Positions 6,480 to 21,314 of a stretch of 24,448 nucleotides of DNA are shown in pieces; the stretch's first letter is position 1; every line of letters begins with the position of its first letter. Origin of the DNA: Syntrophomonadaceae bacterium (GTDB lineage Bacteria; Bacillota; Syntrophomonadia; Syntrophomonadales; Syntrophothermaceae); contig JARYMO010000001.1 of assembly GCA_029907055.1 (NCBI GenBank), forward strand, positions 1-24,448, read 5' to 3'. Made by a program: the position numbers and the translations under genes. The notes beneath the pieces were generated by a model. The model saw only the letters and a list, made by a program, of their open reading frames with translations, made no database searches and was not told the DNA's origin.

Positions 6480-7862
6480 TCACGAATCCACGGAACACTT
6501 ACCACTGCTGGGATCAAATGCGAACTGGGCGGCAAAGGCACGGCAGACATCGGCTGCAGGCACCAGCACCCTGCCAGACACCAGTTCGGCAGCAGCCTCC
6601 ATGGGCACTTCGACGCCGTTGACTCTCATCGTCCGACTGCCGATGCTGATCTGCAGCGCCTTGGCAGGAGTGAGCATGGAGACTGTGCGGGTAGCGGCGT
6701 CCCAGTGAACATCGCCCGCACTCACCCCCAGCATCTGGGCAACATCGCTGACGGCAACGAACACCTTCCCCTCCCTCAGAAATGGGGCAAAGGCCATCGG
6801 CCGCTCTTCCCCATCCACTTTCATGGTGGTACCCCCAATGGTGAACGACGAGACGATTTGGGTTCCCTTCGGCGGCGCCGTATTGCAGTAGGCGACCGCA
6901 GCTTCCGCGGCCGACACGAACGGATTGCCCATGGTGATGGCATCGACCGCAGATCCACCCACCGCCAGCATCACCGGCCCGGCCGGCACCGTGCGGTCCA
7001 GGGTCAGCAAGATGTCAGACACTGCGATGGTGCTGGGCTGGGTGCTCCCGCCCCGCAGCAGGATGGTGAGAATATTGCCGCTGACCATGGCCGAAGGGGA
7101 AGCGAGTTCGAGGTCGCCTGCGGTCACGTTCACCGTGGGACGCGCAGCGAAAGTGACCCCCGTCGGCGCAACCACCACCAGCCGCCCTTGTGTGCCCCGT
7201 ACCACTGCCTGCAACGCCTCCGGACCCGCCTCGCGGACGACCAGGTCAGCGGCGGGCTGGGCCTGTCGCCCGGCTCCGACCGTGCGCGTCCCCCCGACCT
7301 CCAGCGAGAGCGCCCTGGCAACGCGGGCCACCGGCACCTGGGCAGATGCTCCGGCCGTTCCACCCACCGTGAGGATGACCTCGCCTTCGCCAGTACCCAG
7401 CGGCACCGTCACGGCCCCACGTTCGAATACCACCCTGCTTGCCCGGTTACCAGCCTTCAAGACCGTGTAGCTGACCAGCCGCCCCTGGGAGTCTTCTGGT
7501 ATGGCTCCGGACCCCAGCACCACGTCGCCTTCAATCACCGTCGGCACTGGCGCGCGGTTCCAGGCCAGGCCGGGCGGCAGTTCCAGGGTAACGGTCCTGC
7601 CTTCCTCCAGGCTTCCCGCCCCCAGCTCCCTCACCTCCACCGCGGCTACCCCTGCATCGAGGCGACCAGTGTAGACCTGCAAGGGAGATGCCGCTCTCAC
7701 CTCGAGCCCGGTTTCCCGCGGCAGACTTGGTTGTGGCGCCGGCCGCGGTGCACATCCGGACATCAGCAGGGCCATCAGGCCTGCCAGCAGGAACGCTGGC
7801 AGACTCATGCGTACTCGTCTGCGGCATTTCTCCACCTGGTTGGTTCGCAAGGGATTGCTCAT
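6480..7862 (-). CDS. Lipoprotein with two S-layer-type modules and a C-terminal copper-amine-oxidase-N (stalk) domain
   Basis: Lipobox LMSG-C after a basic/hydrophobic leader. GSLEEGRTVTLELP and QPAADLVVREA...PTVNVTAGDLEL...LTLDRTVPAG align by eye with the 10436-12589 protein. Stalk domain FTIGGTTMKVDGEERPMAFAPFLREGKVFV...SGRVLVP. GGAGGGG SD. Confidence 0.85.
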   Translation of the reverse strand: MSNPLRTNQVEKCRRRVRMSLPAFLLAGLMALLMSGCAPRPAPQPSLPRETGLEVRAASPLQVYTGRLDAGVAAVEVRELGAGSLEEGRTVTLELPPGLAWNRAPVPTVIEGDVVLGSGAIPEDSQGRLVSYTVLKAGNRASRVVFERGAVTVPLGTGEGEVILTVGGTAGASAQVPVARVARALSLEVGGTRTVGAGRQAQPAADLVVREAGPEALQAVVRGTQGRLVVVAPTGVTFAARPTVNVTAGDLELASPSAMVSGNILTILLRGGSTQPSTIAVSDILLTLDRTVPAGPVMLAVGGSAVDAITMGNPFVSAAEAAVAYCNTAPPKGTQIVSSFTIGGTTMKVDGEERPMAFAPFLREGKVFVAVSDVAQMLGVSAGDVHWDAATRTVSMLTPAKALQISIGSRTMRVNGVEVPMEAAAELVSGRVLVPAADVCRAFAAQFAFDPSSGKCSVDS

Positions 7863-7912
7863 GATATCCCCTCCATTCTGTTCCCGTGCTTGACGGCGGC
7901 CTTCATCGCGCT

Positions 7913-8043: not shown

Positions 8044-9210
8044 TCAATGTCCTGACGCCGTGGACGGCGATGCCAGGTATGCCCAGGGTTTGGCAAAGGC
8101 CATCTTCATGTAGGCGTGCTGGGCAGCGATCTCATCGGCTCCTGCCACCGCCGCAGCCAATGCCTTTTCGGCTGCCGTTACCTCCGCCAAGGTGCCCACC
8201 CCCACCTCGTAGCGCACGCGGGCCACCCGCAGGTTCTCCTGGCACACGCTGATGCCAGCCATGGCAGCGGAGTAGCCCTGCTCCAGCGCCTGCACCGCGT
8301 AGTAGAGGTTGCGGGTCAGCAAGGCAAACGTTTCCTCGGCGCTCATGGCATCAAGGCCTGCCTGCTCGACCTCTATCTTGCGCACCTGGTACGGAGAATA
8401 CTGGCCGCTGTACAGCGACATGTCCTGCAGAATCTCCCGCATCTTCACCGTTTGCCGGGCCAGCCACAGGCTAGGGGCGCCCTCCAGGGCGCGCCGCACC
8501 TCGTAGTCAAGGCTGTCGATGCGCAAGGGCTGGAACGACAGCTGGTCGACCAGTATCGGCCTGTCCTCCGGCCACAGCCCCACTGCCTGGTTGAACGCCG
8601 CGTAGGCCTTCTCCACCTCGGCACGCGCGCTGGCCAGGGATGTCTCGCCCGATGTCAGCTGGGCCTCGGCGGCGGCCAGTGCACCTCCTGTTCCCATGCC
8701 GACCTGGAACATCGCCCGGGAGTCCTGCAGCCGCCGCCTGGCGTCCGCCAGAGCCGCCTCAGCGGCCTCCTCCCTCGCCAGCGCCACCTGGACCTCGCGG
8801 TACTTCTTGGCGGTGTCCAGCACCACCGTATCCCGGGCCGCCTGCTCGGACCGTTTGCTCATCTCCCAGGTGAGATCGGCGGCTAGGAACTGGGCCCAGG
8901 GGACCTCGACGATGGAGGAGCCGGCTGGCTCCGAGGGTACCCAGTCGAGCCCGCTCGCGCTGTGGTCACGGAGCTCGCCCGTGCGTTCAACCTCGCGGGC
9001 AGCCTTGAGCACCGCCTCGCTGTGGCGCATTGCCATGGCGGTAGCCTGTTCCAGGGTGAGCTGCGGTCGGGCGGGTTCCCGGGCCTGCACCGGTGTCATC
9101 GCGGCAGTCGCGGCGAGGGCCAGGCACAGCAGCAGGAAGACCGCCCGGGCAGCCCCGCTGAGCCCACGAAATCCAGACCACCACTCACCGCCGGCACGTC
9201 TCATGGTCAT
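8044..9210 (-). CDS. Secreted TolC/outer-membrane-efflux-family-like helical protein
   Basis: Signal peptide ending VQA, LTLEQATAMAMRHS start motif, and two helical repeats with the TolC-type turns MFQVGMGTGGAL and RYEVGVGTLAEV. Confidence 0.8.
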   Translation of the reverse strand: MTMRRAGGEWWSGFRGLSGAARAVFLLLCLALAATAAMTPVQAREPARPQLTLEQATAMAMRHSEAVLKAAREVERTGELRDHSASGLDWVPSEPAGSSIVEVPWAQFLAADLTWEMSKRSEQAARDTVVLDTAKKYREVQVALAREEAAEAALADARRRLQDSRAMFQVGMGTGGALAAAEAQLTSGETSLASARAEVEKAYAAFNQAVGLWPEDRPILVDQLSFQPLRIDSLDYEVRRALEGAPSLWLARQTVKMREILQDMSLYSGQYSPYQVRKIEVEQAGLDAMSAEETFALLTRNLYYAVQALEQGYSAAMAGISVCQENLRVARVRYEVGVGTLAEVTAAEKALAAAVAGADEIAAQHAYMKMAFAKPWAYLASPSTASGH

Positions 9211-9384: not shown

Positions 9385-10281
9385 TCAGTAGGCGATTTCC
9401 ACCTTGGCCCACTGGGCGTCGGTAGCCTCCTCGACCCTCAGGATGGTGTCCCGCTCCACGATGCGGCACCCGGCCACCATCACCTCGCTCCCAACGAAGC
9501 ACTTGCAGTCCAACATCTCCCCGTTGGCCACGATGACCGGCCGCTTGGGGCTGAACGGCCATTTCTGGATATGCCGGACCTTGACCCTCGCCCCGTCGAA
9601 GCCCGTGCGTCCGGGAAGGTACGAGGTCACCACGTCGGCATCGGTGACCAAGCGGAGGACAGAGGCGCTGGTCGCGTACAGCCTGACCTGTCCGGCCTGG
9701 GTCAGTGCTCCGGGCTCCAGCTCGACTTCCACGCTCACCTTGGGGTTGATGGCCGCCTGGATCGTGAGGGCGCGCGAAGGATCATAGAACCCCTCGGCGA
9801 CCGGCTCGCCCTCCGGCGGCTGCTGGACGAGGGTGGAGATGCGGATCGTCCTCGTCACGCTGTCCCAGCTGACATTGGTCTCCATGGACTCAGCGATAAA
9901 GCGCAGGGGCACCATGGTGCGTCCGTTGATGATCATGGGGGGGACATCCAGCATCATCTTCTGCGTGCCTCTCAGCGCCTCCCGGTCTCCGATCTTCAGC
10001 ACGATGGTCATTCCACCCTTGGTCCCGATGACGGTCTTGGTCGCCTGCTGCCACTCCAGGTGCACCCCCAGCGCCTCGAAGATGCTGCGCAGGGGCACCA
10101 GCGTACGCCCCTGCACCACCTGCGGCGGGGTGTCAAAGCGCAGCGGCTCGCCGTTGAGCCGAACGGTGATGGGCCTGGTCTCAGCCATTACCGGCGGCGC
10201 CAACAGACCTGCTACCACCAGGCCCACCAGCAACGCGGCCAGCGCAGCCCGCCGCCAGCCTGCTCGTATGGCTCCGTGCAT
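9385..10281 (-). CDS. Secreted protein with an N-terminal copper-amine-oxidase-N (stalk) domain and an unknown C-terminal domain, about 298 aa
   Basis: Signal peptide ending VMA. ITVRLNGEPLRFDTPPQVVQGRTLVPLRSIFEALG...PMIINGRTMVPLRFIAE...VSWD. Start reassigned to ATG 10281 after a GGAGGTGG SD, because the track's extension overlaps a terminator. Confidence 0.88.
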   Translation of the reverse strand: MHGAIRAGWRRAALAALLVGLVVAGLLAPPVMAETRPITVRLNGEPLRFDTPPQVVQGRTLVPLRSIFEALGVHLEWQQATKTVIGTKGGMTIVLKIGDREALRGTQKMMLDVPPMIINGRTMVPLRFIAESMETNVSWDSVTRTIRISTLVQQPPEGEPVAEGFYDPSRALTIQAAINPKVSVEVELEPGALTQAGQVRLYATSASVLRLVTDADVVTSYLPGRTGFDGARVKVRHIQKWPFSPKRPVIVANGEMLDCKCFVGSEVMVAGCRIVERDTILRVEEATDAQWAKVEIAY

Positions 10282-10330
10282 CCCCGACCACCTCCAGTCA
10301 TCGCGTGTTCGACAGTCTGTAGTACAAAAC

Positions 10331-10369
10331 GGCGGGGAGCCCGCATCCTCAAGGACCGGGCTCCCCGCC
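10331..10369 (-). terminator. Rho-independent terminator of the S-layer gene
   Basis: Perfect 13-bp stem GGCGGGGAGCCCG / CGGGCTCCCCGCC, followed by GTTTTGT on the minus strand. Confidence 0.85.
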
Positions 10370-10435
10370 AGCTCCGTCATCATCCGCTCCTGCGTTTCGA
10401 CTGCATGCCTTTCATTTCAACCGTCTTCAGTCTGG

Positions 10436-12589
10436 CTAGAACGTCACCGTGACGGTCTGGGTCGCCGCATCCCACGCGATGTCGGCTCCGAACGCCTGGG
10501 CCACGAAGCGGATGGGCAGCATGGTCCGGCCGCCGGTGATCTCGGGGGCAGCGTCCATCATGATAGCGGCGCCGTTCAGCAGCATGGTCTTGCTGCCAAT
10601 GGTCATCTGCACCACGCGGTCACCCTTGATGATGGTGACGGTCTTGGACACCGCGTCCCAGATGATGTTGTTGTCGCTGACGCCCACGGCATTGGCCACG
10701 AAGCGGACCGGCAGGAAGGTGCGGCCGTCCTTGATGTAGGGAGCCACGTCCATGGTCACCGCTTCGCCGTTGAGGGTGTAGGTGGTGCTGCCGATGGTGA
10801 ACACCGCGGTGCCGGTGGTCTCACCGGGAGCCGGGGTCACCACGACCGCCGCCACGAACTTGGCCACGTACTCGGCATCCTCGAATACCAGATTGTCTGC
10901 CCCGTTTTCCATCAGGTCTTCATTCACAGCCGTCCCACCCGCGCTGACCACCAGGGTGCCCACCGGCACGGTGCGGTCAACGGTGAAGGTGATGTTGCTG
11001 ATCTTGATGGTAGCGGCTTCAGAGCTCTCCGCCTTGATGGGGATGACCAGCACCCGGTTGCTAGTGGTGCGGGTGATGGAGCCAAGCTCCACGTCGCCCG
11101 CGGTGACGGTGACGGTCGGGACCTTCGACCATGCTACTCCGGACGGTGCGGTCAGTTCCAGTCTGCCACCGTCCATCAGGGCCTCGGCCTTGGCCTCGAC
11201 GATGGTGATGTCCCCAGCCGGCTGGTCCTTGATGCCGATCTTGACCTCGTTCTCGCTGCCGGTCACCGTGATGGGAGCGAGCACCTTGGCCACCACGACG
11301 TCACCAGACACCCCGGCGCTGCCACTCACCGTGACCACCAGGTCGCCGGGGGCCATGTCGACCGCCAGGTCAACCTCGATGTCCTTGATGGTGATCTTGC
11401 CAGCATCATTTCCGGTGTTGTCAATCTTGAACTTCAGCTGATCGCGGTCACTGTTGAGCGTAACGCCCTCGACATCCACACCGCCTTCGGTATCGAAGGT
11501 GTAGCTGTCTTCCACGAACTTGGCCTTGTCGGGAAGGGTGAGTATCACGGTGCGCCCGTCAACCAGGCTGTTTCCGGCGGCCTCGTCGATCACGATGTCG
11601 CCGACTTCCTCGGCCAGACGGCCAGCCAGCACCTCGGTGGCGTTCTTGGCCTCCACGGTCACGCCGTAGTCAACGTACTTGGCAACCACCAGGCTGGAGG
11701 GGGAGAAGGTGGATTTGCCGCGCACGGTGACCTTGACGTCGCCGAGCTTGGCCTCGGTGGAGTCAACGTCGATAGTGGCGCGGAGCCGCATCAGTTTCTT
11801 CCCCGTGGTGCTTGTTGCACCATCCGTGTCGTGACACCTGACGTACAGGTCGCGACCGTCCACTTCGTAGTACACCTTGCCCGTAAGATCCTCGCCGTAG
11901 GTGATATCATAGACCTTGCCGCCCGCGAAGGACACCCACGTAAATCCCTTGGGCAACGTGAAGCGCAGGCTCTCCGGGTCTTCTTTCAGCGCACCGGCGG
12001 TGTTTTCCTTCATGTTGATGATAATGGCACCAGCGTCGCTGCCAGACTCGGTAATCTCCTTCACGTCCGGGACGGACAGTGCCACTTCGCCGTCGCTCAG
12101 CTTGGCGATGGTGAGTTCACCACCCACGAACTGGCCGGACAGCGCGGTGATGGTGGCCTTCACCTCACCGGAGGCACTGCTCGGGATATCCATGTTCAGC
12201 TTCAGGTAGACGTCCACATCGGTATTCTTAGCGTAAACGGTGAGCTTGAGTTCATAGTCGGAACCAGAGACCTCTTCGTAGAAGAGATCAGTGCCGACCT
12301 GCAGGGAGTTGTCGTTCACCCCGTACACACCGCTGACGACACAGCTTGCAATATTGAGGTCATAGTCGTCCGACGGAAGTGAGATGATGGCGCTGCTAGT
12401 GGTCGTCAGGGGATCAAAACGGATGTGGATCTGCCCTGACATCTGTCCCGTATCGCCAGCGGTCAGCGTCGGAGTCGTCAGCATCTGGTAGGTGGTAGCC
12501 GCCTGTGCCGCCGGGATGCCTACGAACAGCGTCGCCAGCATCGCCAGCACCAGCAGCAGGGCGAGCTTGCTGTTTCTCGCTTTGCGCAA
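10436..12589 (-). CDS. Probable S-layer / major surface protein, about 717 aa: four tandem beta-rich modules plus a C-terminal stalk domain
   Basis: TTG 12589 after an AGAGGAGGG SD. Signal peptide RKARNSKLALLLVLAMLATLFVGIPAAQA. Thr/Val/Asp/Gly-rich and acidic. Strong codon bias, long leader and strong terminator, as expected for a very highly expressed gene. C-terminal FTIGSTTYTLNG...MDVAPYIKDGRTFLPVRFVA...GRTMLPIRFVAQAFG. S-layer identity is an inference. Confidence 0.8.
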   Translation of the reverse strand: MRKARNSKLALLLVLAMLATLFVGIPAAQAATTYQMLTTPTLTAGDTGQMSGQIHIRFDPLTTTSSAIISLPSDDYDLNIASCVVSGVYGVNDNSLQVGTDLFYEEVSGSDYELKLTVYAKNTDVDVYLKLNMDIPSSASGEVKATITALSGQFVGGELTIAKLSDGEVALSVPDVKEITESGSDAGAIIINMKENTAGALKEDPESLRFTLPKGFTWVSFAGGKVYDITYGEDLTGKVYYEVDGRDLYVRCHDTDGATSTTGKKLMRLRATIDVDSTEAKLGDVKVTVRGKSTFSPSSLVVAKYVDYGVTVEAKNATEVLAGRLAEEVGDIVIDEAAGNSLVDGRTVILTLPDKAKFVEDSYTFDTEGGVDVEGVTLNSDRDQLKFKIDNTGNDAGKITIKDIEVDLAVDMAPGDLVVTVSGSAGVSGDVVVAKVLAPITVTGSENEVKIGIKDQPAGDITIVEAKAEALMDGGRLELTAPSGVAWSKVPTVTVTAGDVELGSITRTTSNRVLVIPIKAESSEAATIKISNITFTVDRTVPVGTLVVSAGGTAVNEDLMENGADNLVFEDAEYVAKFVAAVVVTPAPGETTGTAVFTIGSTTYTLNGEAVTMDVAPYIKDGRTFLPVRFVANAVGVSDNNIIWDAVSKTVTIIKGDRVVQMTIGSKTMLLNGAAIMMDAAPEITGGRTMLPIRFVAQAFGADIAWDAATQTVTVTF

Positions 12590-12826
12590 GTGTTTTCCCT
12601 CCTCTAGTATGTGATGTTGATTGAGGTAATCGGGGCCTCCTGCCCCAGCTGGAGGTGGTCGCCGGGACTGCCCGGCATCGCGGCCTATACCTCTCATCCC
12701 TCCCAACCCTGGCCGGCCGGGAACCGACCGGTGTCTCCCGCCATCCGCGTGCGGTGGGTTCCCTCCCGCCCGCGGCGCGGGGTCGTCGCTGGAGGCGGCG
12801 GCCGCCCTGGCGGCCTTCGCTGTTCC

Positions 12827-12832
12827 AGTATA
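12827..12832 (-). promoter_or_regulatory. Sigma-A-like -10 (TATACT) upstream of the S-layer gene
   Basis: Same AGGGTATACTGG context as the clear promoter at 9258-9286. No good -35. Confidence 0.35.
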
Positions 12833-12837
12833 CCCTA

Positions 12838-12866
12838 TTGGACACGCTGGCAGCCAGTGATGTTCC
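12838..12866 (-). promoter_or_regulatory. ECF-sigma-type promoter pointing at the S-layer gene
   Basis: GGAAC (12866-12862)-N16-GTGTCCAA (12845-12838), with the same boxes and spacing as the copy in front of the ECF gene. Confidence 0.55.
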
Positions 12867-13004
12867 CGGGCCCGATTCAAAATCTCACCCGATCCGCAAT
12901 GGCCGGGCCGGTGCGCGGCGAGCTGCACGACCATGTATGGAGTCATATATTATATAATAGATGCTGCGGTACGCGTTCCATGGCACATGACCTTTTTCGA
13001 GAAC

Positions 13005-13033
13005 GGAACAAAACCCCGAAGGCCGGTGTCTAA
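13005..13033 (+). promoter_or_regulatory. ECF-sigma-type autoregulatory promoter
   Basis: GGAAC (13005-13009)-N16-GTGTCTAA (13026-13033), about 40 nt before ATG 13074. AAC in the -35 and GTC in the -10 are general ECF promoter features, and ECF genes are commonly autoregulated. Confidence 0.6.
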
Positions 13034-13073
13034 AGAGGTAACCGGGTCCGCTCGGGTGGCAGGAGAATCCAGT

Positions 13074-13682
13074 ATGAATCAAGGGATGGACCCCTTGGTG
13101 AGCAAGCTCCGGCAGGGGGACGCCGGGGCCTTCGAGGCGCTGGTAGTAGCCTACCAGGACCGGGTGTTCACCCAGTGCTATCACCTCACCGGGAGCCTGG
13201 CCGACGCGCAGGACCTGGCGCAGGAGGTGTTCCTGCGGGCATATCGGGGCCTGCATGCGTTTCGCGGTGACGCGGATCTCGGCACCTGGCTGCACCGCAT
13301 CGCCGTCAACACCTACCTGAACGGACGGCGCAAGTACAGGCCCGAAGCGCTGTTTTCACTGGATGACCCCGTTCCCGGCACCGACGGCGACCTGACCCGC
13401 CAGCTTGCAGCGCAGACCGAAGACCCTGTCGAGCGCCTGGAGCGACTGGAAATCCAGGCAGCGGTGCAGGAGGCGCTCGCCCAACTGTCGCCGGACTTCA
13501 GGGCCATTCTGGTGCTGAGAGAGTTTGAGGATTGCAGCTACGAGGAGATGGCCTCGCTGCTGGGCTGCTCGGTGGGAACGGTGAAGTCGAGGCTCAACCG
13601 GGCACGGCGGGCCCTGCGGGACAGGGTGAAGGACATTATCAAGACCGACGCGGATAACCGGTCTGGGACGCCACGGACTTGA
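13074..13682 (+). CDS. ECF sigma-70 family sigma factor, about 202 aa
   Basis: GDAGAFEALV, DAQDLAQEVFLRAY, WLHRIAVNTYL (region 2) and LSPDFRAILVLREFEDCSYEEMASLLGCSVGTVKSRLNRAR (region 4). Start at ATG 13074 after an AGGAG SD. Confidence 0.96.
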   Translation: MNQGMDPLVSKLRQGDAGAFEALVVAYQDRVFTQCYHLTGSLADAQDLAQEVFLRAYRGLHAFRGDADLGTWLHRIAVNTYLNGRRKYRPEALFSLDDPVPGTDGDLTRQLAAQTEDPVERLERLEIQAAVQEALAQLSPDFRAILVLREFEDCSYEEMASLLGCSVGTVKSRLNRARRALRDRVKDIIKTDADNRSGTPRT

Positions 13683-14866: not shown

Positions 14867-17800
14867 TTACCTGGCTGGACCAGCAGCCTCGTGCCGGGCA
14901 GCGGCGTCGACCAGCAATGCCGCTTCCCAGCGCGACAGCAGCCGCTCTGCCGTCCACGCTCCCCCTGGGTCACCCTGCAACCCCGGAACCAGCCCGGCCG
15001 CCACGCAGCGGCGGACCGCGCCGGCGGCCCATCCATACTTCGCCAGGGTGGCGACTTCTTCCCCGGCTCCGGGCAGGTGCTCCGCCTCCCGCAGGCGGAG
15101 CAGCGCGTCAAGCATGACCGCCGCCTCGGCCCAGGACAGGGCTTTGTTCGCCTGGAATGTGCCGTCCGGATAGCCAGTAACGATGCCGTGCATGCGCGCC
15201 GCCGCTACCGCGGCGCGGCCCCAGGCCGGGATAGATGACTGGTCGACGAACGGAACAGTCTCGGGGGCAGAAGCCCACCTCCTGAGAGCGGCCAGCATGG
15301 CAACGAATTCCATGCGCGTGGCCTGCGCCCACGGACGGAAGGTGCCATCGGGGTATCCTCTCAATATCCCTCCCTGCACCAATTCCTGCAGCTGCGCCGC
15401 CCCCTGGATGTCCTTCACATCCGGGAAAGGCCAACCCTCCCTAGCTCCCTGCGCGCGCACCACCTGTACCCTCCGAACCGCGATACCGCCCCCGGCCGCA
15501 TCGACGGCCACTACCGTCAGTTCAGGTTCTTCAGAGCGGGCCGGGAACGTCGTGCCGAATCGCCCCTGGTCGTCTGGCATCAACTTCAGTCGACTGCCGT
15601 CAGCGTGGTACACGTACACGTGCGTGGCACTGCTCTCTCCCGAAACTGTCACCGTGCCAGCCTTCCTTTCCGCCTGCACTTCCAGCCACGGCGGCTGTGC
15701 AACGGCTGGTGCCGCGGCTTCGACGGACAGGAGGACGCGCTCCTCCCCGGGTGCCGGCGGGGCCACGCTCACCAGCCGCAGACGGTCAAGGGGGGACAAG
15801 ACTGCCGCCTCCACCGGGTAGCCTGCCTTGACGACCTCGGTGGCCGGGGTAACCCGGTAGCGCGTTCCTCCACGGGTCACCAGCGTGCCCCGGCCTTCAT
15901 CCCAGGTTCCGAACCAGTCCCGTCGCTCCGTTTCCCCGCTCACCAGGTCGATGCGGAGGGCGCGCCCCTTCGCGTCGGTCAATACCCGCGCCCAGCGACC
16001 CGCCAACCCTGGGCCGACCACTCCGGCCTCCTGGCCATGCAAAACCTGGGTACCCTGGTCGGTCGGCAGCACCAGCACCCGGTTGCGGGCGGTGTCCTTG
16101 AGGTACAGCAGGCCGGCTGCGGGATCCACGTACACCAGGCGCCCGAAGTGAACCGCAGAGAATGCCTGCAACGACACGATGTCTATCGTGTCCGGCAGGC
16201 ATACAGCCATGATGGCCATGCCCTCCCTCACCTGGTGCAGCGAAGCCGGCCGGCTGTCAACATGTATTGTAGCCCCGGTCAGGACCCGGTACTCTCGCCC
16301 AGAGGTGAGCGACAAGGTGCCGTCCCTTCCGTCGACGCTCCGCAAAGTCCCCACGATTACCGTGCGCCGAACCGTCACCTGGTGCACGGTAACTCCGTCC
16401 TCCCCCAGCCGCAAGCTCACAGCCATGCCGGGCGCGATAAGATCGAGTGCCGCGGCTTCGGTGCTGGAAAACAGTGCATCGGTAGGCGAGCCATCCGCCA
16501 GCTCGTCGACCAGCTTCACGCCGGTCCAGAGGCCGGTCCGGTAGCTGGAGGGCTCGCGCAGCAGTTCGAGGGTTCCGGCATCAGCATCGTAGCGCTTCAC
16601 GATGCCCTCGTGCTCGCGGAACACTACTTCCATTCGCCAGATGGTCTGGAACCGCGGGCTCACAGAGGCCTTCACCTCCACTCCCACGGGAACTGCGCCC
16701 GCACTCACTCCCGTCTGCCCGTTGACACGCAGCCAGCAAGCAGACGTGCGCTGGGCTGCCCCGTCCACCATGTAGCCGCCACTCCTCGCGCGGGACTGGG
16801 CTTCTTCCACCAGTACCCCAGTCGGGCCTTGCACCAGTCGCATGCCATGCCCAACCACGGTCCTGGCTGCCACCCAGACGAATCCCGACCCCTCCCAGAC
16901 GTCGCTTCCCGGCAGGAGGGCGTCACTCGCCGTCGCTTTCCCGCCGTTCACTGCCGCCCTGACCACGCGCTCCCCCAGTACCAGCTGGCGGCTGCCATCC
17001 ACCATCTCGAGCACCCGCTGACCATCGCTGGTACCCGCCAAGGTCCCATGACGGCCCACCTGCCCATAGACCAGGGCAAAGTCCTGCCTAGCCCGGGAGG
17101 CATACGGGTTCACTCCCCGCCCGATGCGAGAAGCGGTCACCCGCACCGTGTACACCCCTTCCACAGGCTCGGCAATCTCAAGGGTTTCCAGGTTGTTGGC
17201 CCGGTCCGCCCTGCCGCCGGTCAGGTGCTGGTTGCCAACCAACGTCTTTCCCTTCGGGTCGATCACCTGCAGGTCAAGGTCGTTGACCAACCTGGTTCCC
17301 GCGCTCTCCGTCGCTGCAGGTAGGTCAGTCCACGCCAGGGTAACCCTGAGCGGGAACCCCCGGTCCTTCACCCACAAGCGGAACTCGCGCGCCTCGCCCT
17401 GCGCGAGGCCCGCCGTGTCCTCGCTGGTCCTCGACATCCCCGCCGCCAGGGGAAGCACCGATCCCGCCACGTCGAGGATGCCGAACCCTCCATCGCCGGC
17501 TGCAACGGTTCCCCTCCTCGCCCCCTGCACCAGGACCGCCTTCACCAGCGCCGCCGTGGGCTGCTCCCCCTGCGACTCCAGGTATTCCCGTACCAGCGCG
17601 GCAGCGCCCCCGGCAATCGCGGCAGCCATGCTGGTGCCGCCCATCCTGGTGTACTTCGGGTTAGCCGGAAGGTTGCCGGTGATGCGGCAGGAGCAGGCAG
17701 AAACGACAGCGGAAGAGGGAACCAACAGGTCTGGCTTGACCCTGCCGTCTGTCGTCGGTCCCCGGCTGGAGAAGGAAGCCACGGCAGTGGCATCGACACA

Positions 17801-18550
17801 GTCCGCCCCATAAGATGGGCGCGGCGTCTGGGATGAGCCGACGACCAGGGCATTCTTGCTGTTCGCCTCGGAGGTCAGGGTGCCGGAGCCCGGGCCCCCG
17901 TTGCCGGCCCCGAAGACGGGAAGGAAGTGGGGAGCGGAACGAACGAACTGGTCCACCTGGGCCGTGCGCTGGGTGTACCTGTTGCCTCCTCCGCCCCAGC
18001 CGTTGACGTGGACCCGCACCCCCGCGGCGTAGGCCGGTGCGAACAGGTCATTGATGTCGTCCGGTACGCGAATGGAACCATCGGCATCCAGCAGCCCTTG
18101 CACGTAGAGGCTGGCGCCGGGCGCTATCCCCTGGTATTGCCCGCCCGAGGCGCTGCCAGAGCCGACGATAGTGGCCGCCATATGGGTACCGTGTCCTGAG
18201 GGATCATCCGCCACTGGCCTCCCGGCCCAAGACTTCAGGAAGGCCACGCGCGGCATCTGGCCCGGGGTACTGGCCAGGTCAGGGTGGATATCGACGGTAC
18301 TGCCCTTGTCCAGACCGCTATCAGCCAGGCCCACCAGCTGCCCATGTCCAGTGAGCCCGAGGGGGCTGACAATGTCTGCCGCCCCCAGCGCGCTCGCCCC
18401 GATGATGTCCGCCGACCGGTCATTGAGGAATGCAACGGGGGAATCGAATGGGGGGCTGGAGTCCCGCAGCAGCGGTAATCCCACCCACAGCACGAGCAAT
18501 AAAGATGAACCCATCAGCGCCAGCGCCCCGCTGGCCAGGAAGCGCTTCAT
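14867..18550 (-). CDS. S8 subtilase (KP-43-like) with a beta-sandwich domain, tandem repeats and three C-terminal SLH domains, about 1227 aa
   Basis: Catalytic triad LADSG, HGTHMA and GTSMA, oxyanion-hole GAGNG, SSRGPTTDGRVKPDL and VTLAWTD...LVNDLDL. SLH motifs GYPDGTFRPWAQATRMEF and GYPDGTFQANKALSWAEA, plus a degenerate third. Start at ATG 18550 (GGAGGG SD, hydrophobic leader), not 18862. Confidence 0.92.
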   Translation of the reverse strand: MKRFLASGALALMGSSLLLVLWVGLPLLRDSSPPFDSPVAFLNDRSADIIGASALGAADIVSPLGLTGHGQLVGLADSGLDKGSTVDIHPDLASTPGQMPRVAFLKSWAGRPVADDPSGHGTHMAATIVGSGSASGGQYQGIAPGASLYVQGLLDADGSIRVPDDINDLFAPAYAAGVRVHVNGWGGGGNRYTQRTAQVDQFVRSAPHFLPVFGAGNGGPGSGTLTSEANSKNALVVGSSQTPRPSYGADCVDATAVASFSSRGPTTDGRVKPDLLVPSSAVVSACSCRITGNLPANPKYTRMGGTSMAAAIAGGAAALVREYLESQGEQPTAALVKAVLVQGARRGTVAAGDGGFGILDVAGSVLPLAAGMSRTSEDTAGLAQGEAREFRLWVKDRGFPLRVTLAWTDLPAATESAGTRLVNDLDLQVIDPKGKTLVGNQHLTGGRADRANNLETLEIAEPVEGVYTVRVTASRIGRGVNPYASRARQDFALVYGQVGRHGTLAGTSDGQRVLEMVDGSRQLVLGERVVRAAVNGGKATASDALLPGSDVWEGSGFVWVAARTVVGHGMRLVQGPTGVLVEEAQSRARSGGYMVDGAAQRTSACWLRVNGQTGVSAGAVPVGVEVKASVSPRFQTIWRMEVVFREHEGIVKRYDADAGTLELLREPSSYRTGLWTGVKLVDELADGSPTDALFSSTEAAALDLIAPGMAVSLRLGEDGVTVHQVTVRRTVIVGTLRSVDGRDGTLSLTSGREYRVLTGATIHVDSRPASLHQVREGMAIMAVCLPDTIDIVSLQAFSAVHFGRLVYVDPAAGLLYLKDTARNRVLVLPTDQGTQVLHGQEAGVVGPGLAGRWARVLTDAKGRALRIDLVSGETERRDWFGTWDEGRGTLVTRGGTRYRVTPATEVVKAGYPVEAAVLSPLDRLRLVSVAPPAPGEERVLLSVEAAAPAVAQPPWLEVQAERKAGTVTVSGESSATHVYVYHADGSRLKLMPDDQGRFGTTFPARSEEPELTVVAVDAAGGGIAVRRVQVVRAQGAREGWPFPDVKDIQGAAQLQELVQGGILRGYPDGTFRPWAQATRMEFVAMLAALRRWASAPETVPFVDQSSIPAWGRAAVAAARMHGIVTGYPDGTFQANKALSWAEAAVMLDALLRLREAEHLPGAGEEVATLAKYGWAAGAVRRCVAAGLVPGLQGDPGGAWTAERLLSRWEAALLVDAAARHEAAGPAR

Positions 18551-18851
18551 CGGCCACACCCTCCGTCGCGTCCGTCGGACACGGATATAGTGCACGGCAC
18601 CAGGCTGACCAGCGTCCTTCACCTTCTCTCGATGTATACGCGCCCCCAGCGTTCTCCTTTCAGCGCGAGCGCGTGGCTCCGCTCGTGAGCGGGAGCCGTG
18701 ACGTGAGGCCGTGAAGCCGGTCAGGCGTGAAAGCCCGCTCCTGCATCGGCAGCTTGCCAAATGCTCATTCTCGCTCCTCATGAACTGTAGATGGGCGCGA
18801 GAGATCCGGACACCACTCGCCCATTGGCGGTGCACCACCAGGAGCGGACAT

Positions 18852-21314
18852 CTACCAGACACTGCGCTCGGGTACAGCCACCTTCACTGCGAGCAACCGC
18901 TCGAACTCTTCCCGGTGTCCGGCATCTTGACCGTCCAGCCTGCTCCGGGCCTCTTCCACGGCAATCTCCTTGCCTCTCACCAACGCTGCTGCCTGCCACG
19001 CCTTGGCCGTGGCGACTACCTCTGCTTCCTTCGCTCGTGTTGCCCGGGCCAATTCCTTCTGCGCTGCAGCGTAGTCGCCGCGCAGGAAGAGGAGCCGGCC
19101 CCGTGCCAGGTGGATGCCGGGGCTGGGCATGAGGTCCTCCGCATAATCGGGGTATTCCGCCTGCACGCGCGCCAGAACGGCCGCGTACTTCTGTAGCAGA
19201 TTAGCTGCATTGCCCACGTACTCGGTCGCGGCCTTCTCCCCCTCCTTTTCTGCCACCTGGACCGCGATGTCCAGGTACCCGTTGGCAGCCGCCGAGTACC
19301 TGCGGGCATCCAGCGGATTCGCGCGCACCCCCATGTCAAGCATCCGCAGTGCGCCCCGGAAATCGTTCAGCCCGGAATAGATCTCCTGCATCGCGTCGAT
19401 CAGCTTCAGGTCATACGGCGCGACCTCCTCCACGCGGCGGGAGGCCTGCTGGGCCGCTTGGCGGAACACCTTGCTCTGCGAAGAGCCAGACTGCTCCAAG
19501 GCCTGGTATTCAGTGGTCAGCACGCGCGCCAGGCTGGCGTAGGCGAAGCCATCCCAGGGGTTGAATTCGGTGGCTTTGACCAGCTTGACCCGTGCCGACT
19601 CGAGGTTGCCCTGGTGGGCATCGGTCACGGCCGACTTCTCGAACCCGTAGGATACGAGAAAACCCGTTGCCAGCACCAGCGCCACTGCTGCCAGGCCAGC
19701 CGCACCCAGCATGGCCCCCACCTGGATGGAGCCAGTCCCGCCCCTCGAAACCAGGCGCCACCGCACGGCAGCGAGGGCCAGCAGCGACCAGAGGATGATG
19801 GCCACCGCCGGCAGCGACAGATCAATGTCTATCGCAGCATGCATCCCTAATACCAGAGCGGCTGAGGTTATGCCAGCCATCTGGAGTTTGGCAGAAGCAT
19901 CTGCTGGCGCCCGGTACACTGACATGAACAGGAACAGCAGGACAACCCACATGGCCAGGAAGGCTGCCATTCCAATGATGCCGGTTTCTACCCACACCTG
20001 GAGGAAGTGGTTGTGCACCTCGGTAGTAAAATACGGCATGTCCAGGTACTGGTGATAGAGCGCGTTCCATCCACCCGCCCCGGTACCCAGCAGCGGGTGT
20101 TCCATGCCTATCCTGAACGCTGCCCGCGAGAAGGCGAGCCTGGTGACGAAGCTCTGGCCTCCCGGATCGGTGAGTTCCTCCACCCGCTGGGCGGCTACTG
20201 ATGTCGGCAGCTTGTCCTGCGCATGGTCCAGTCCGCTCAGCGTCCACGTCACCGCCGCCAGGATAACCAGGCTCCCCAAGGCCAGCGCAGTCGCCGTCCT
20301 CCTGCCTGCCGCTTCCCCTGTTGCCAGGCGACTCCTGGCCAAGTCCAGTGCCCCCACGGCCCCGGCCATCAGCGCGAGCGCCCCCACTTGCACAGGCACA
20401 CGGGAGCTGGCCATGGCGGGAGCGTAGAGCAACGCGGCGGCCAGCGCTGGAAGGAACACTACTGCCAGCGACGCCAGCAATGGCAGGCGCTGAGCGGGAG
20501 GTGCCAGGGCAACCAGCAGGCACAGCCCGGCCGCCAGCGCCAACCACCCGCCCTTGGCAGCTGCCACGATGGTCACCAGTATCATCAGCGCGGCCGCGCT
20601 GCCATAGGCCAAGCGGAGCCATGGGGTTCCCTGACGCTGGTACAGAACAATCCCCATTACCCCGAAGGCCGCAGCATAGGCAGCCAGTGAGTTCGGGTAC
20701 TGGAGGGTGGACTGGATCCGTCCGGCGTCGAAGGCATGCGGAAACACGTTGAGCCCCAGCGACGCCAGCACCCCTACCAAGGCTACCCCGAATGCACCCC
20801 AGAACAGCGCCGCCATCGAATCGTCAAGCGTCGCTTCATCCCTCACCAGGTTTGACGTCAGCCAGTATACGAAGAAGTAGGTGCCTGCCAGCAGGAAACC
20901 CGTGATCGCCTGCTCTGGGTGGACCGCGCTCACCAGCGACAATCCGTAACCCACGACATACGCCGCAACTGCCCAGTCAAGGGGGGTGCGCAGCAATGTC
21001 CATTCCCCGCGGCGCATTTTCCACACTGCCGCGGCCAGAAAGAGAGCCGCAACCGCAGCGATGTACACCAGCTTTTCCACTTCGAAGAAGAGGCCCCGAA
21101 AGAGCGGCCCCAGCAGGACCAGCCCCCCCGTAACCGCGAGAAGCCCCCGCTCATAGGTCAAGCGCGCCGCCTGCCGAGGAGTCTCCTTTGTCGCCCCGAC
21201 CCCCGCTGAGGGTCTCCCCCGCATGTCGACTCCACTGGTATTTTTCTCCTGCCGCCCGTGGCGGACTTCACCGTTGCTGTTTGCCCTCCTCGTCCTGCTG
21301 TGCTTGCGACCCAC
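18852..21314 (-). CDS. O-antigen-ligase-like (Wzy_C) multi-pass membrane protein with C-terminal TPRs; candidate O-oligosaccharyltransferase
   Basis: Many hydrophobic segments, GRIQSTLQYPNSLAAY, TRLAFSRAAFRIGMEHPLLGTGAGGW, EVHNHFLQVWVETGIIG (conserved His). TPR-like helices (KATEFNPWDGFAYASLA; GVRANPLDARRY; RGDYAAAQKEL). The start may be GTG 21314 or ATG 21224. Confidence 0.88.
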   Translation of the reverse strand: MGRKHSRTRRANSNGEVRHGRQEKNTSGVDMRGRPSAGVGATKETPRQAARLTYERGLLAVTGGLVLLGPLFRGLFFEVEKLVYIAAVAALFLAAAVWKMRRGEWTLLRTPLDWAVAAYVVGYGLSLVSAVHPEQAITGFLLAGTYFFVYWLTSNLVRDEATLDDSMAALFWGAFGVALVGVLASLGLNVFPHAFDAGRIQSTLQYPNSLAAYAAAFGVMGIVLYQRQGTPWLRLAYGSAAALMILVTIVAAAKGGWLALAAGLCLLVALAPPAQRLPLLASLAVVFLPALAAALLYAPAMASSRVPVQVGALALMAGAVGALDLARSRLATGEAAGRRTATALALGSLVILAAVTWTLSGLDHAQDKLPTSVAAQRVEELTDPGGQSFVTRLAFSRAAFRIGMEHPLLGTGAGGWNALYHQYLDMPYFTTEVHNHFLQVWVETGIIGMAAFLAMWVVLLFLFMSVYRAPADASAKLQMAGITSAALVLGMHAAIDIDLSLPAVAIILWSLLALAAVRWRLVSRGGTGSIQVGAMLGAAGLAAVALVLATGFLVSYGFEKSAVTDAHQGNLESARVKLVKATEFNPWDGFAYASLARVLTTEYQALEQSGSSQSKVFRQAAQQASRRVEEVAPYDLKLIDAMQEIYSGLNDFRGALRMLDMGVRANPLDARRYSAAANGYLDIAVQVAEKEGEKAATEYVGNAANLLQKYAAVLARVQAEYPDYAEDLMPSPGIHLARGRLLFLRGDYAAAQKELARATRAKEAEVVATAKAWQAAALVRGKEIAVEEARSRLDGQDAGHREEFERLLAVKVAVPERSVW

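Follow-up and report, generated by a model that had tools for sequence, protein, structure and literature searches.

Which promoter supplies the transcript of a bacterial surface coat, and can it be one that belongs to an alternative sigma factor encoded next door? Few bacterial genes are expressed as strongly as those for S-layer proteins, whose transcription is usually attributed to strong housekeeping promoters. In the window analysed here (the whole stretch of DNA under study, 24,448 nucleotides, which makes up contig C344 of an assembly of 362 contigs, 1.83 Mb and 67% GC), a candidate S-layer gene, referred to below as the coat gene, is divergent from a pair of genes for an ECF sigma factor and a membrane anti-sigma factor. 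An initial annotation of the sequence had described two back-to-back copies of a bipartite motif between these units, and had proposed that the sigma factor uses them to activate its own operon and to boost S-layer transcription in response to envelope damage. Here we ask whether the two motifs are promoters of this sigma factor and, if so, whether they provide the routine expression of the coat gene or an additional, damage-induced supply. We consider it likely that the adjacent RpoE/SigW-like ECF sigma factor reads two divergent promoters in the 196-bp interval spanned by the motifs, and that, together with its anti-sigma factor, it is a dedicated, largely constitutive controller of coat synthesis.

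Results

Two rare motif copies of the ECF-promoter type lie back to back

Both motifs were found at the coordinates and on the strands given by the initial annotation (Table 1). The plus-strand copy reads GGAAC-N16-GTGTCTAA and lies 40 nt 5' of the sigma gene, with a predicted transcription start near 13040, 34 nt upstream of the ATG; the minus-strand copy reads GGAAC-N16-GTGTCCAA and lies about 249 nt 5' of the gene for a 717-aa secreted protein, with a predicted start near 12830. GGAAC-N16-GTGTC occurs twice in the window against 0.08 occurrences expected, and none of 100 shuffles contained two or more. Across both strands of the 1.83 Mb assembly, the genome-wide scan that the initial annotation had called for returned three matches, of which the window pair are the only non-coding ones; the third (C10:20871) was rejected as a promoter, as it lies within a coding region read as dapF-like. 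Allowing one mismatch in GGAAC-N18-GTCTAA gave eight sites genome-wide. Of the six others, four fall in frames whose GC3 resembles that of coding sequence; C137:7596 and C213:3309, which carry GTCGAA, are ambiguous.

Table 1. Features of the window at and around the two divergent promoters
Feature	Position	Strand	Remarks
TolC-like protein	8044-9210	-	own sigma-70-like promoter
Second Cu_amine_oxidN1 protein	9385-10383		left of coat gene
S-layer candidate (coat gene), 717 aa	10436..12589	-	TTG start, Sec signal peptide, two C-terminal Cu_amine_oxidN1
5' leader, about 240 nt, of S-layer-candidate mRNA	12590..12830	-	second Shine-Dalgarno-like block GGGAGG 12704-12699
P_slp, ECF-type promoter	12838..12866	-	-35 GGAAC 12866-12862; -10 TGTCCAA 12844-12838
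AT-rich block between the two promoters	12935..12962	.	contains TATATTATATAATAGA; genome 67% GC
P_ecf, ECF-type promoter	13005..13033	+	-35 GGAAC 13005-13009; -10 TGTCTAA 13027-13033
ECF (group IV) sigma factor, 202 aa	13074..13682	+	Pfam Sigma70_r2, Sigma70_r4_2
Membrane anti-sigma factor, 349 aa	13709..14758	+	zf-HC2, one hydrophobic span
S8 subtilase with SLH domains	14867-18862	-	convergent to anti-sigma gene
Wzy_C protein			after S8 subtilase, further right

The 16-nt spacers of the two window copies are identical at just 3 of 16 positions, so the copies do not represent a duplication. The proposal that they form a selected bipartite element is supported, among other evidence, by conservation across 46 orthologous loci (see below). 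A wider membership of the element did not hold up. Four of six GGAACA sites had been counted as sharing it on the grounds of a GTG at the same offset, and two of these, 21409(-) with GTGAAATC and 6166(-) with GTGCTGGC, were rejected as members because the GTC(T/C)AA core is absent. These two sites lie upstream of the Wzy_C gene and the gene for a priming sugar transferase, and a search of the relatives' loci with the strict motif did not find them.

Both window promoters depart from the family consensus in missing the T-tract after GGAAC, which occurs in about 90% of the relatives' sites, and P_slp has GTCCAA as against GTCTAA in 84 of 84 sites collected from relatives. These deviations may reflect GC pressure or a weaker promoter.

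The neighbouring genes encode an RpoE/SigW-like ECF sigma factor and its putative anti-sigma factor

The sigma factor consists of sigma-2 and sigma-4 domains only, which fits the ECF (group IV) family, and its score against the general ECF model TIGR02937 (107.4 bits, cutoff 42.9) places it within that family. The best equivalog models are SigW (NF007223 / TIGR02948, 147.5 vs 209 bits and 147.1 vs 243 bits) and RpoE (TIGR02939, 133.9 vs 236 bits), and the protein stays below the cutoffs of both. In a profile search, the closest solved structures were 6in7_B ('sigma-H'), which we take to be the Pseudomonas aeruginosa AlgU-MucA complex, together with SigW and Escherichia coli sigma-E; matches to sigma-E and AlgU had E-values of 1e-40 to 1e-47. 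The orthologue alignment shows no variation at the positions equivalent to S172 and R176 of sigma-E, the residues that read the -35 element (as cited in PMC3397946).

The second gene of the operon begins 27 nt past the sigma stop codon and follows the sigma gene immediately in each of the 15 relatives fetched, a position that marks its product as the putative cognate partner. This protein has an N-terminal zf-HC2 domain with H-x3-C-x2-C and a hydrophobic span near residues 103-121, and its outer part combines a weak DUF4349 match with a C-terminal coiled-coil-like stretch. With AAC in the -35 element, GTC in the -10 element and a motif copy 5' of the sigma factor's own gene, the operon has the sequence features expected of ECF autoregulation.

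The coat protein is probably an S-layer subunit

The coat gene starts with TTG behind GAGGAGGG, a strong RBS. A domain search of the 717-aa protein returned just the two C-terminal Cu_amine_oxidN1 domains and no SLH domain, so that the label of an SLH-anchored S-layer protein was rejected; a PDB sequence search with the same protein found no relative. Full-length homologues with 29-41% identity and the same Cu_amine_oxidN1 domain are encoded at the same place in relatives, and the protein is the orthologue of Swol_0133 of Syntrophomonas wolfei. Swol_0133, a 78-kDa 'copper amine oxidase', exceeds all other proteins of the membrane fraction in abundance and has been predicted to form the S-layer (PMC3582634), and its abundance is among the highest in all three growth conditions studied (PMC4324140). 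Swol_0131, two genes apart from Swol_0133, carries the annotation 'putative transmembrane anti-sigma factor', and its product was found in the proteome (supplement of PMC4324140). Given the published prediction and the abundance of Swol_0133, the label 'S-layer candidate' is reasonable, and the 717-aa protein is probably an S-layer subunit.

The stretch between P_slp and the coat gene appears to be a conserved leader. Leaders of 195-340 nt were present in 19 of 19 aligned loci, and each of the 19 carries, besides the true RBS, an AGGAGG or AGGGGG block 81-156 nt 5' of the start codon. This second Shine-Dalgarno-like block resembles the STAB-SD mRNA stabilisers of highly expressed Bacillus genes. 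Rfam returned nothing, either for the whole window at gathering thresholds or for 12500-13100 at E up to 1, so the leader belongs to no known family of riboswitches or other RNAs; folded as a single sequence, it was no more stable than shuffles (z = -1.06).

The motif is conserved with the sigma factor and follows the coat gene

Among 40 relatives searched, 17 have one clear sigma orthologue (48-60% identity). Nearly all 17 have GGGAACTTTT-N13-TGTCTAA upstream, with the GGAAC-N18-GTCTAA geometry of the window, and in most of them the opposite strand carries another copy. A further 80 loci came from a scan of named genomes, with taxa including Syntrophomonas wolfei subsp. methylbutyratica (G024), Syntrophomonadaceae, Pelotomaculum, Desulfoscipio, Neomoorella, Moorellaceae, Ca. 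Syntrophopropionicum and Desulfofundulus. We assembled an orthologous set of 46 distinct loci (ECF identity at least 46%, duplicates removed) and a comparison set of 47 loci with more distant ECFs. The conservation in orthologous divergent regions that the initial annotation had named as a check is evident on both sides. Of 45 orthologous loci, 41 have the strict motif GGAAC-N18-GTC(T/C)AA at -53 to -106 relative to the start of the sigma gene, with the sigma-side form GGAACTTTT-N14-GTCTAA; on the opposite strand, 30 of 44 have a copy 185-603 nt upstream. Such a copy is missing within 750 nt in the other 14, several of which have one farther off. Among the more distant ECFs, the strict motif was found in 5 of 46 and the opposite-strand copy in none of 39. 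A word count that presupposed no motif gave TGTCTAA (42) and GGAACTT (41) as the top 7-mers upstream of 44 orthologues.

Each opposite-strand copy examined is followed, 225-370 nt on, by a gene of 700-780 aa with a strong RBS, a signal peptide and Cu_amine_oxidN1. The motif also accompanies coat genes that have been displaced. For example, other genes intervene in two loci (L023 and L031), where the motif is 2.4-3.0 kb from the sigma gene and still about 240 nt 5' of the coat gene; two coat paralogues in L035 each have a motif 251 nt upstream; and in G038 the coat gene is 24 kb away, with the motif 250 nt upstream. G038 has a further copy 5' of a gene for a 423-aa Cu_amine_oxidN1 protein. Since complete relatives carry two to three copies genome-wide (two in G001, both at the locus; three in G014; three in G038), the regulon looks very small. 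G014, a single contig of 2,936,195 bp from the same genus (Syntrophomonas), is presumably S. wolfei Goettingen.

In one genome without an orthologous ECF (G007), a terminator and a TATAAT-type region precede the full-length coat homologue (L119, G007:C19), which has no ECF motif upstream; as read from the sequence, this suggests that promoter replacement accompanies loss of the sigma factor. G010 has only a degenerate GGAAC-N18-GTCATA. Tandem ECF-type promoters were observed 5' of the coat gene in L034 (6447 and 6623), L040 (7679 and 7588) and L044 (7698 and 7588), the last two being the Desulfoscipio loci.

RNA contigs of S. wolfei begin at the ECF-type promoter of the coat gene

No sequencing run was listed for the sequence of the window itself. 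Four RNA runs were compared with the S. wolfei locus (L028:6900-8900), where the coat promoter lies at 7825-7853 (+) ahead of a coat ORF that begins at 8088, and the sigma promoter lies at 7710-7682 (-). A metatranscriptome contig (X1) begins at 7870, 17 nt past the -10 element of the coat promoter, and a culture transcriptome contig (X2) begins at 7889, 36 nt past it; both are 2.7-2.8 kb long and cover the coat gene alone. The sigma-operon contig from the same run as X1 has its end at 7646, which lies 36 nt inside the -10 element of the sigma promoter and gives indirect support for transcription from it, and none of the four runs yielded a contig between the promoters, at 7647-7869. The contig ends are approximate because the assemblies are unstranded. 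Within that precision, two independent runs agree on the ECF-type promoter as the 5' edge of the S. wolfei coat mRNA, whose leader measures about 220 nt.

The surroundings of the two promoters are syntenic

The conserved cluster has the order TolC-like gene (leftward), coat gene of about 700-800 aa (leftward), two promoters, sigma and anti-sigma genes (rightward), and S8-SLH gene (leftward). Eleven of 15 relatives retain the TolC-like protein downstream of the coat gene, and in the window the TolC-like gene has a promoter-like site of its own at 9286-9258 (-), TTGACC-17-TATACT. Of the 15 relatives fetched, 9 have a full-length homologue of the S8-SLH protein in the same position, and one more (L025) shows a partial match. 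The S8 subtilase gene has no motif copy; it is conceivable that its product has a role in coat processing or in cleavage of the anti-sigma factor.

Discussion

Direct control of the coat gene by the ECF sigma factor is well supported, since the motif is conserved, follows the coat gene when it is displaced, is rare genome-wide and lies where RNA contigs of S. wolfei begin. The same observations uphold the view of the initial annotation that both motifs are of the ECF-promoter type, one serving the sigma operon and the other the S-layer candidate, and it is very likely that the sigma factor transcribes its own operon and the coat gene. These two units appear to make up essentially the whole regulon. 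We propose a model in which P_ecf would drive the sigma/anti-sigma operon and so provide positive autoregulation, while P_slp would drive a monocistronic coat mRNA with a leader of about 240 nt. The membrane-spanning zinc-finger anti-sigma factor would hold the sigma factor at the membrane until a signal sensed outside the membrane frees it, and the free sigma factor would then transcribe from P_ecf and P_slp.

How the circuit is used depends on whether the coat gene has another promoter. The initial annotation took the ECF promoter for an auxiliary, damage-induced booster, with routine coat expression supplied by a separate housekeeping promoter. Most characterised ECF sigma factors do stay inactive until envelope stress, and the gene of a transmembrane anti-sigma factor adjoins the sigma gene here, both of which would suit such a role. 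However, a search of 12400-13200 for sigma-70-type promoters returned none, the long leader behind the motif is kept as a single unit, and the coat contigs from ordinary S. wolfei cultures begin at the ECF-type promoter, with no separate contig start downstream. With a coat protein that is constitutively very abundant in S. wolfei, a coat mRNA that starts at the ECF-type promoter in ordinary cultures of that species and no housekeeping promoter seen in the intergenic region of the window, we favour the ECF-type promoter as the main, routine promoter of the coat gene and regard the booster role as unlikely. An 'envelope-damage' trigger also fits poorly with constitutive, very high coat expression. 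Since the orthologous coat protein is constitutively among the most abundant proteins, we see the sigma/anti-sigma pair as a dedicated, largely constitutive controller, possibly a homeostat of coat synthesis rather than a pure damage alarm.

Another ECF sigma factor might read these promoters in place of the neighbouring one. Five genomes (G014, G035, G007, G018 and G034) encode a paralogous ECF, about 41% identical, with GGAAC(T/A)TTT-N-CGTCTAA at the junction of its own sigma and anti-sigma genes, and related ECF groups can overlap in specificity, as do sigma-W, -X and -M of Bacillus subtilis. Cross-recognition by another sigma factor is thus possible, given the similar motif of the paralogous group. 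As the main reader of the two promoters, however, the paralogue is highly improbable. The sigma-side motif co-occurs with the orthologue and not with more distant ECFs, the only two copies in G001 are those at the locus, and the assembly of the window genome shows no further copy. In addition, G007 has the paralogue without the orthologue, and its coat homologue has the motif-free, TATAAT-type upstream region described above. We infer that the neighbouring sigma factor, and not the paralogue, reads the motif. The junction motif of the paralogue (L117:4267-4295 (-), L118:4246-4274 (-), G007:C5:102605, G018:C39:6517 and G034:C4:8708) may be an internal promoter or reflect regulation of one sigma system by the other. 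The paralogous operon, in at least five genomes, encodes an anti-sigma factor with zf-HC2 and RseA_N, followed by polA.

Their inverted orientation within one intergenic region might suggest that the two copies are instead half-sites of an operator bound by a regulator, or a pair that arose by chance, but this is scarcely credible. The distance between them ranges from about 115 to about 530 nt in relatives, while the distance from each copy to its own gene is maintained. Within the motif, the geometry is constant and the spacer sequence unconserved, as in sigma-factor promoters. In addition, RNA contigs begin just downstream, and chance would give 0.08 copies per window.

The components of the circuit are known in kind, including the ECF sigma factor, the zinc-finger anti-sigma factor, the RpoE-like promoter and autoregulation. 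Like the E. coli sigma-E (RpoE)/RseA and P. aeruginosa AlgU/MucA systems, the locus combines a two-domain ECF with a membrane anti-sigma factor co-transcribed from an autoregulated operon, and its promoter is almost the same as that of sigma-E, with GGAACTT at -35 and GTC at -10 (PMC6648896). Unlike these systems, the window anti-sigma factor joins zf-HC2 to a DUF4349-like outer domain and lacks the RseA fold, the host is an anaerobe of a Gram-positive lineage, the regulon appears to comprise two units as against about 100 genes for sigma-E, and the main target is a surface-coat protein. Sigma-W/RsiW of B. subtilis is likewise a Firmicute ECF with a zinc-binding transmembrane anti-sigma factor and autoregulation, and SigW is the best NCBIfam hit of the window sigma factor (147 bits), which nevertheless scores under the SigW cutoff of 209 bits. 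The sigma-W promoter, TGAAAC-N16-CGTA, is unlike the window motif, and the sigma-W regulon is large and directed at antimicrobial stress. RpoE1 of T. tengcongensis also has a different motif, tGTTAC...CGTC (PMC3397946).

The closest counterpart is the orthologous locus Swol_0131-0133 of S. wolfei, with the same two motifs in the divergent region. The S. wolfei promoters fit the consensus fully (T-tract, GTCTAA), whereas the window copies deviate. The S. wolfei papers (PMC3582634 and PMC4324140) address protein abundance only and mention neither these promoters nor a link to the sigma factor. Similar in organisation are the Sigma-I/RsgI pairs of Clostridium thermocellum, alternative sigma factors with transmembrane anti-sigma factors that each serve a few abundant surface-structure genes, those of the cellulosome (PMC7826278). 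Unlike the window sigma factor, Sigma-I is not a canonical ECF, has a different C-terminal domain, senses polysaccharides and uses different promoter motifs; the main text of that paper mentions none of DUF4349, S-layer or copper amine oxidase.

A literature search for a link between ECFs and S-layers, or for DUF4349 anti-sigma factors, found no relevant paper. What appears to be new, and was not found in the literature, is a probable major coat gene as the main, near-sole target of an ECF sigma factor across several families. The conserved promoter of this probable major coat protein is thus of the ECF type in many syntrophic, sulfate-reducing or acetogenic anaerobes. The small and well-defined regulon of two promoters offers a testable promoter/sigma pair for organisms with few genetic tools, and possibly a handle on how bacteria of methanogenic degradation, such as S. 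wolfei and Pelotomaculum, match coat synthesis to envelope growth. Such a compact and highly specific sigma/promoter pair could also become an orthogonal expression part.

A more far-reaching reading, which we put forward tentatively and rather doubt in its full form, is that across a Clostridia-lineage clade (Syntrophomonas, Syntrophothermus-like bacteria, Pelotomaculum, Desulfoscipio and Neomoorella) the major coat gene has no housekeeping promoter and would be transcribed only via this dedicated ECF sigma factor. In this scenario, the anti-sigma factor, through its DUF4349-like outer domain, would monitor the status of the coat or the wall, possibly with the S8-SLH protease cleaving, and would close a feedback loop. 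Within the interval itself, the AT-rich block at 12935-12962 could be a UP-element or a regulator site.
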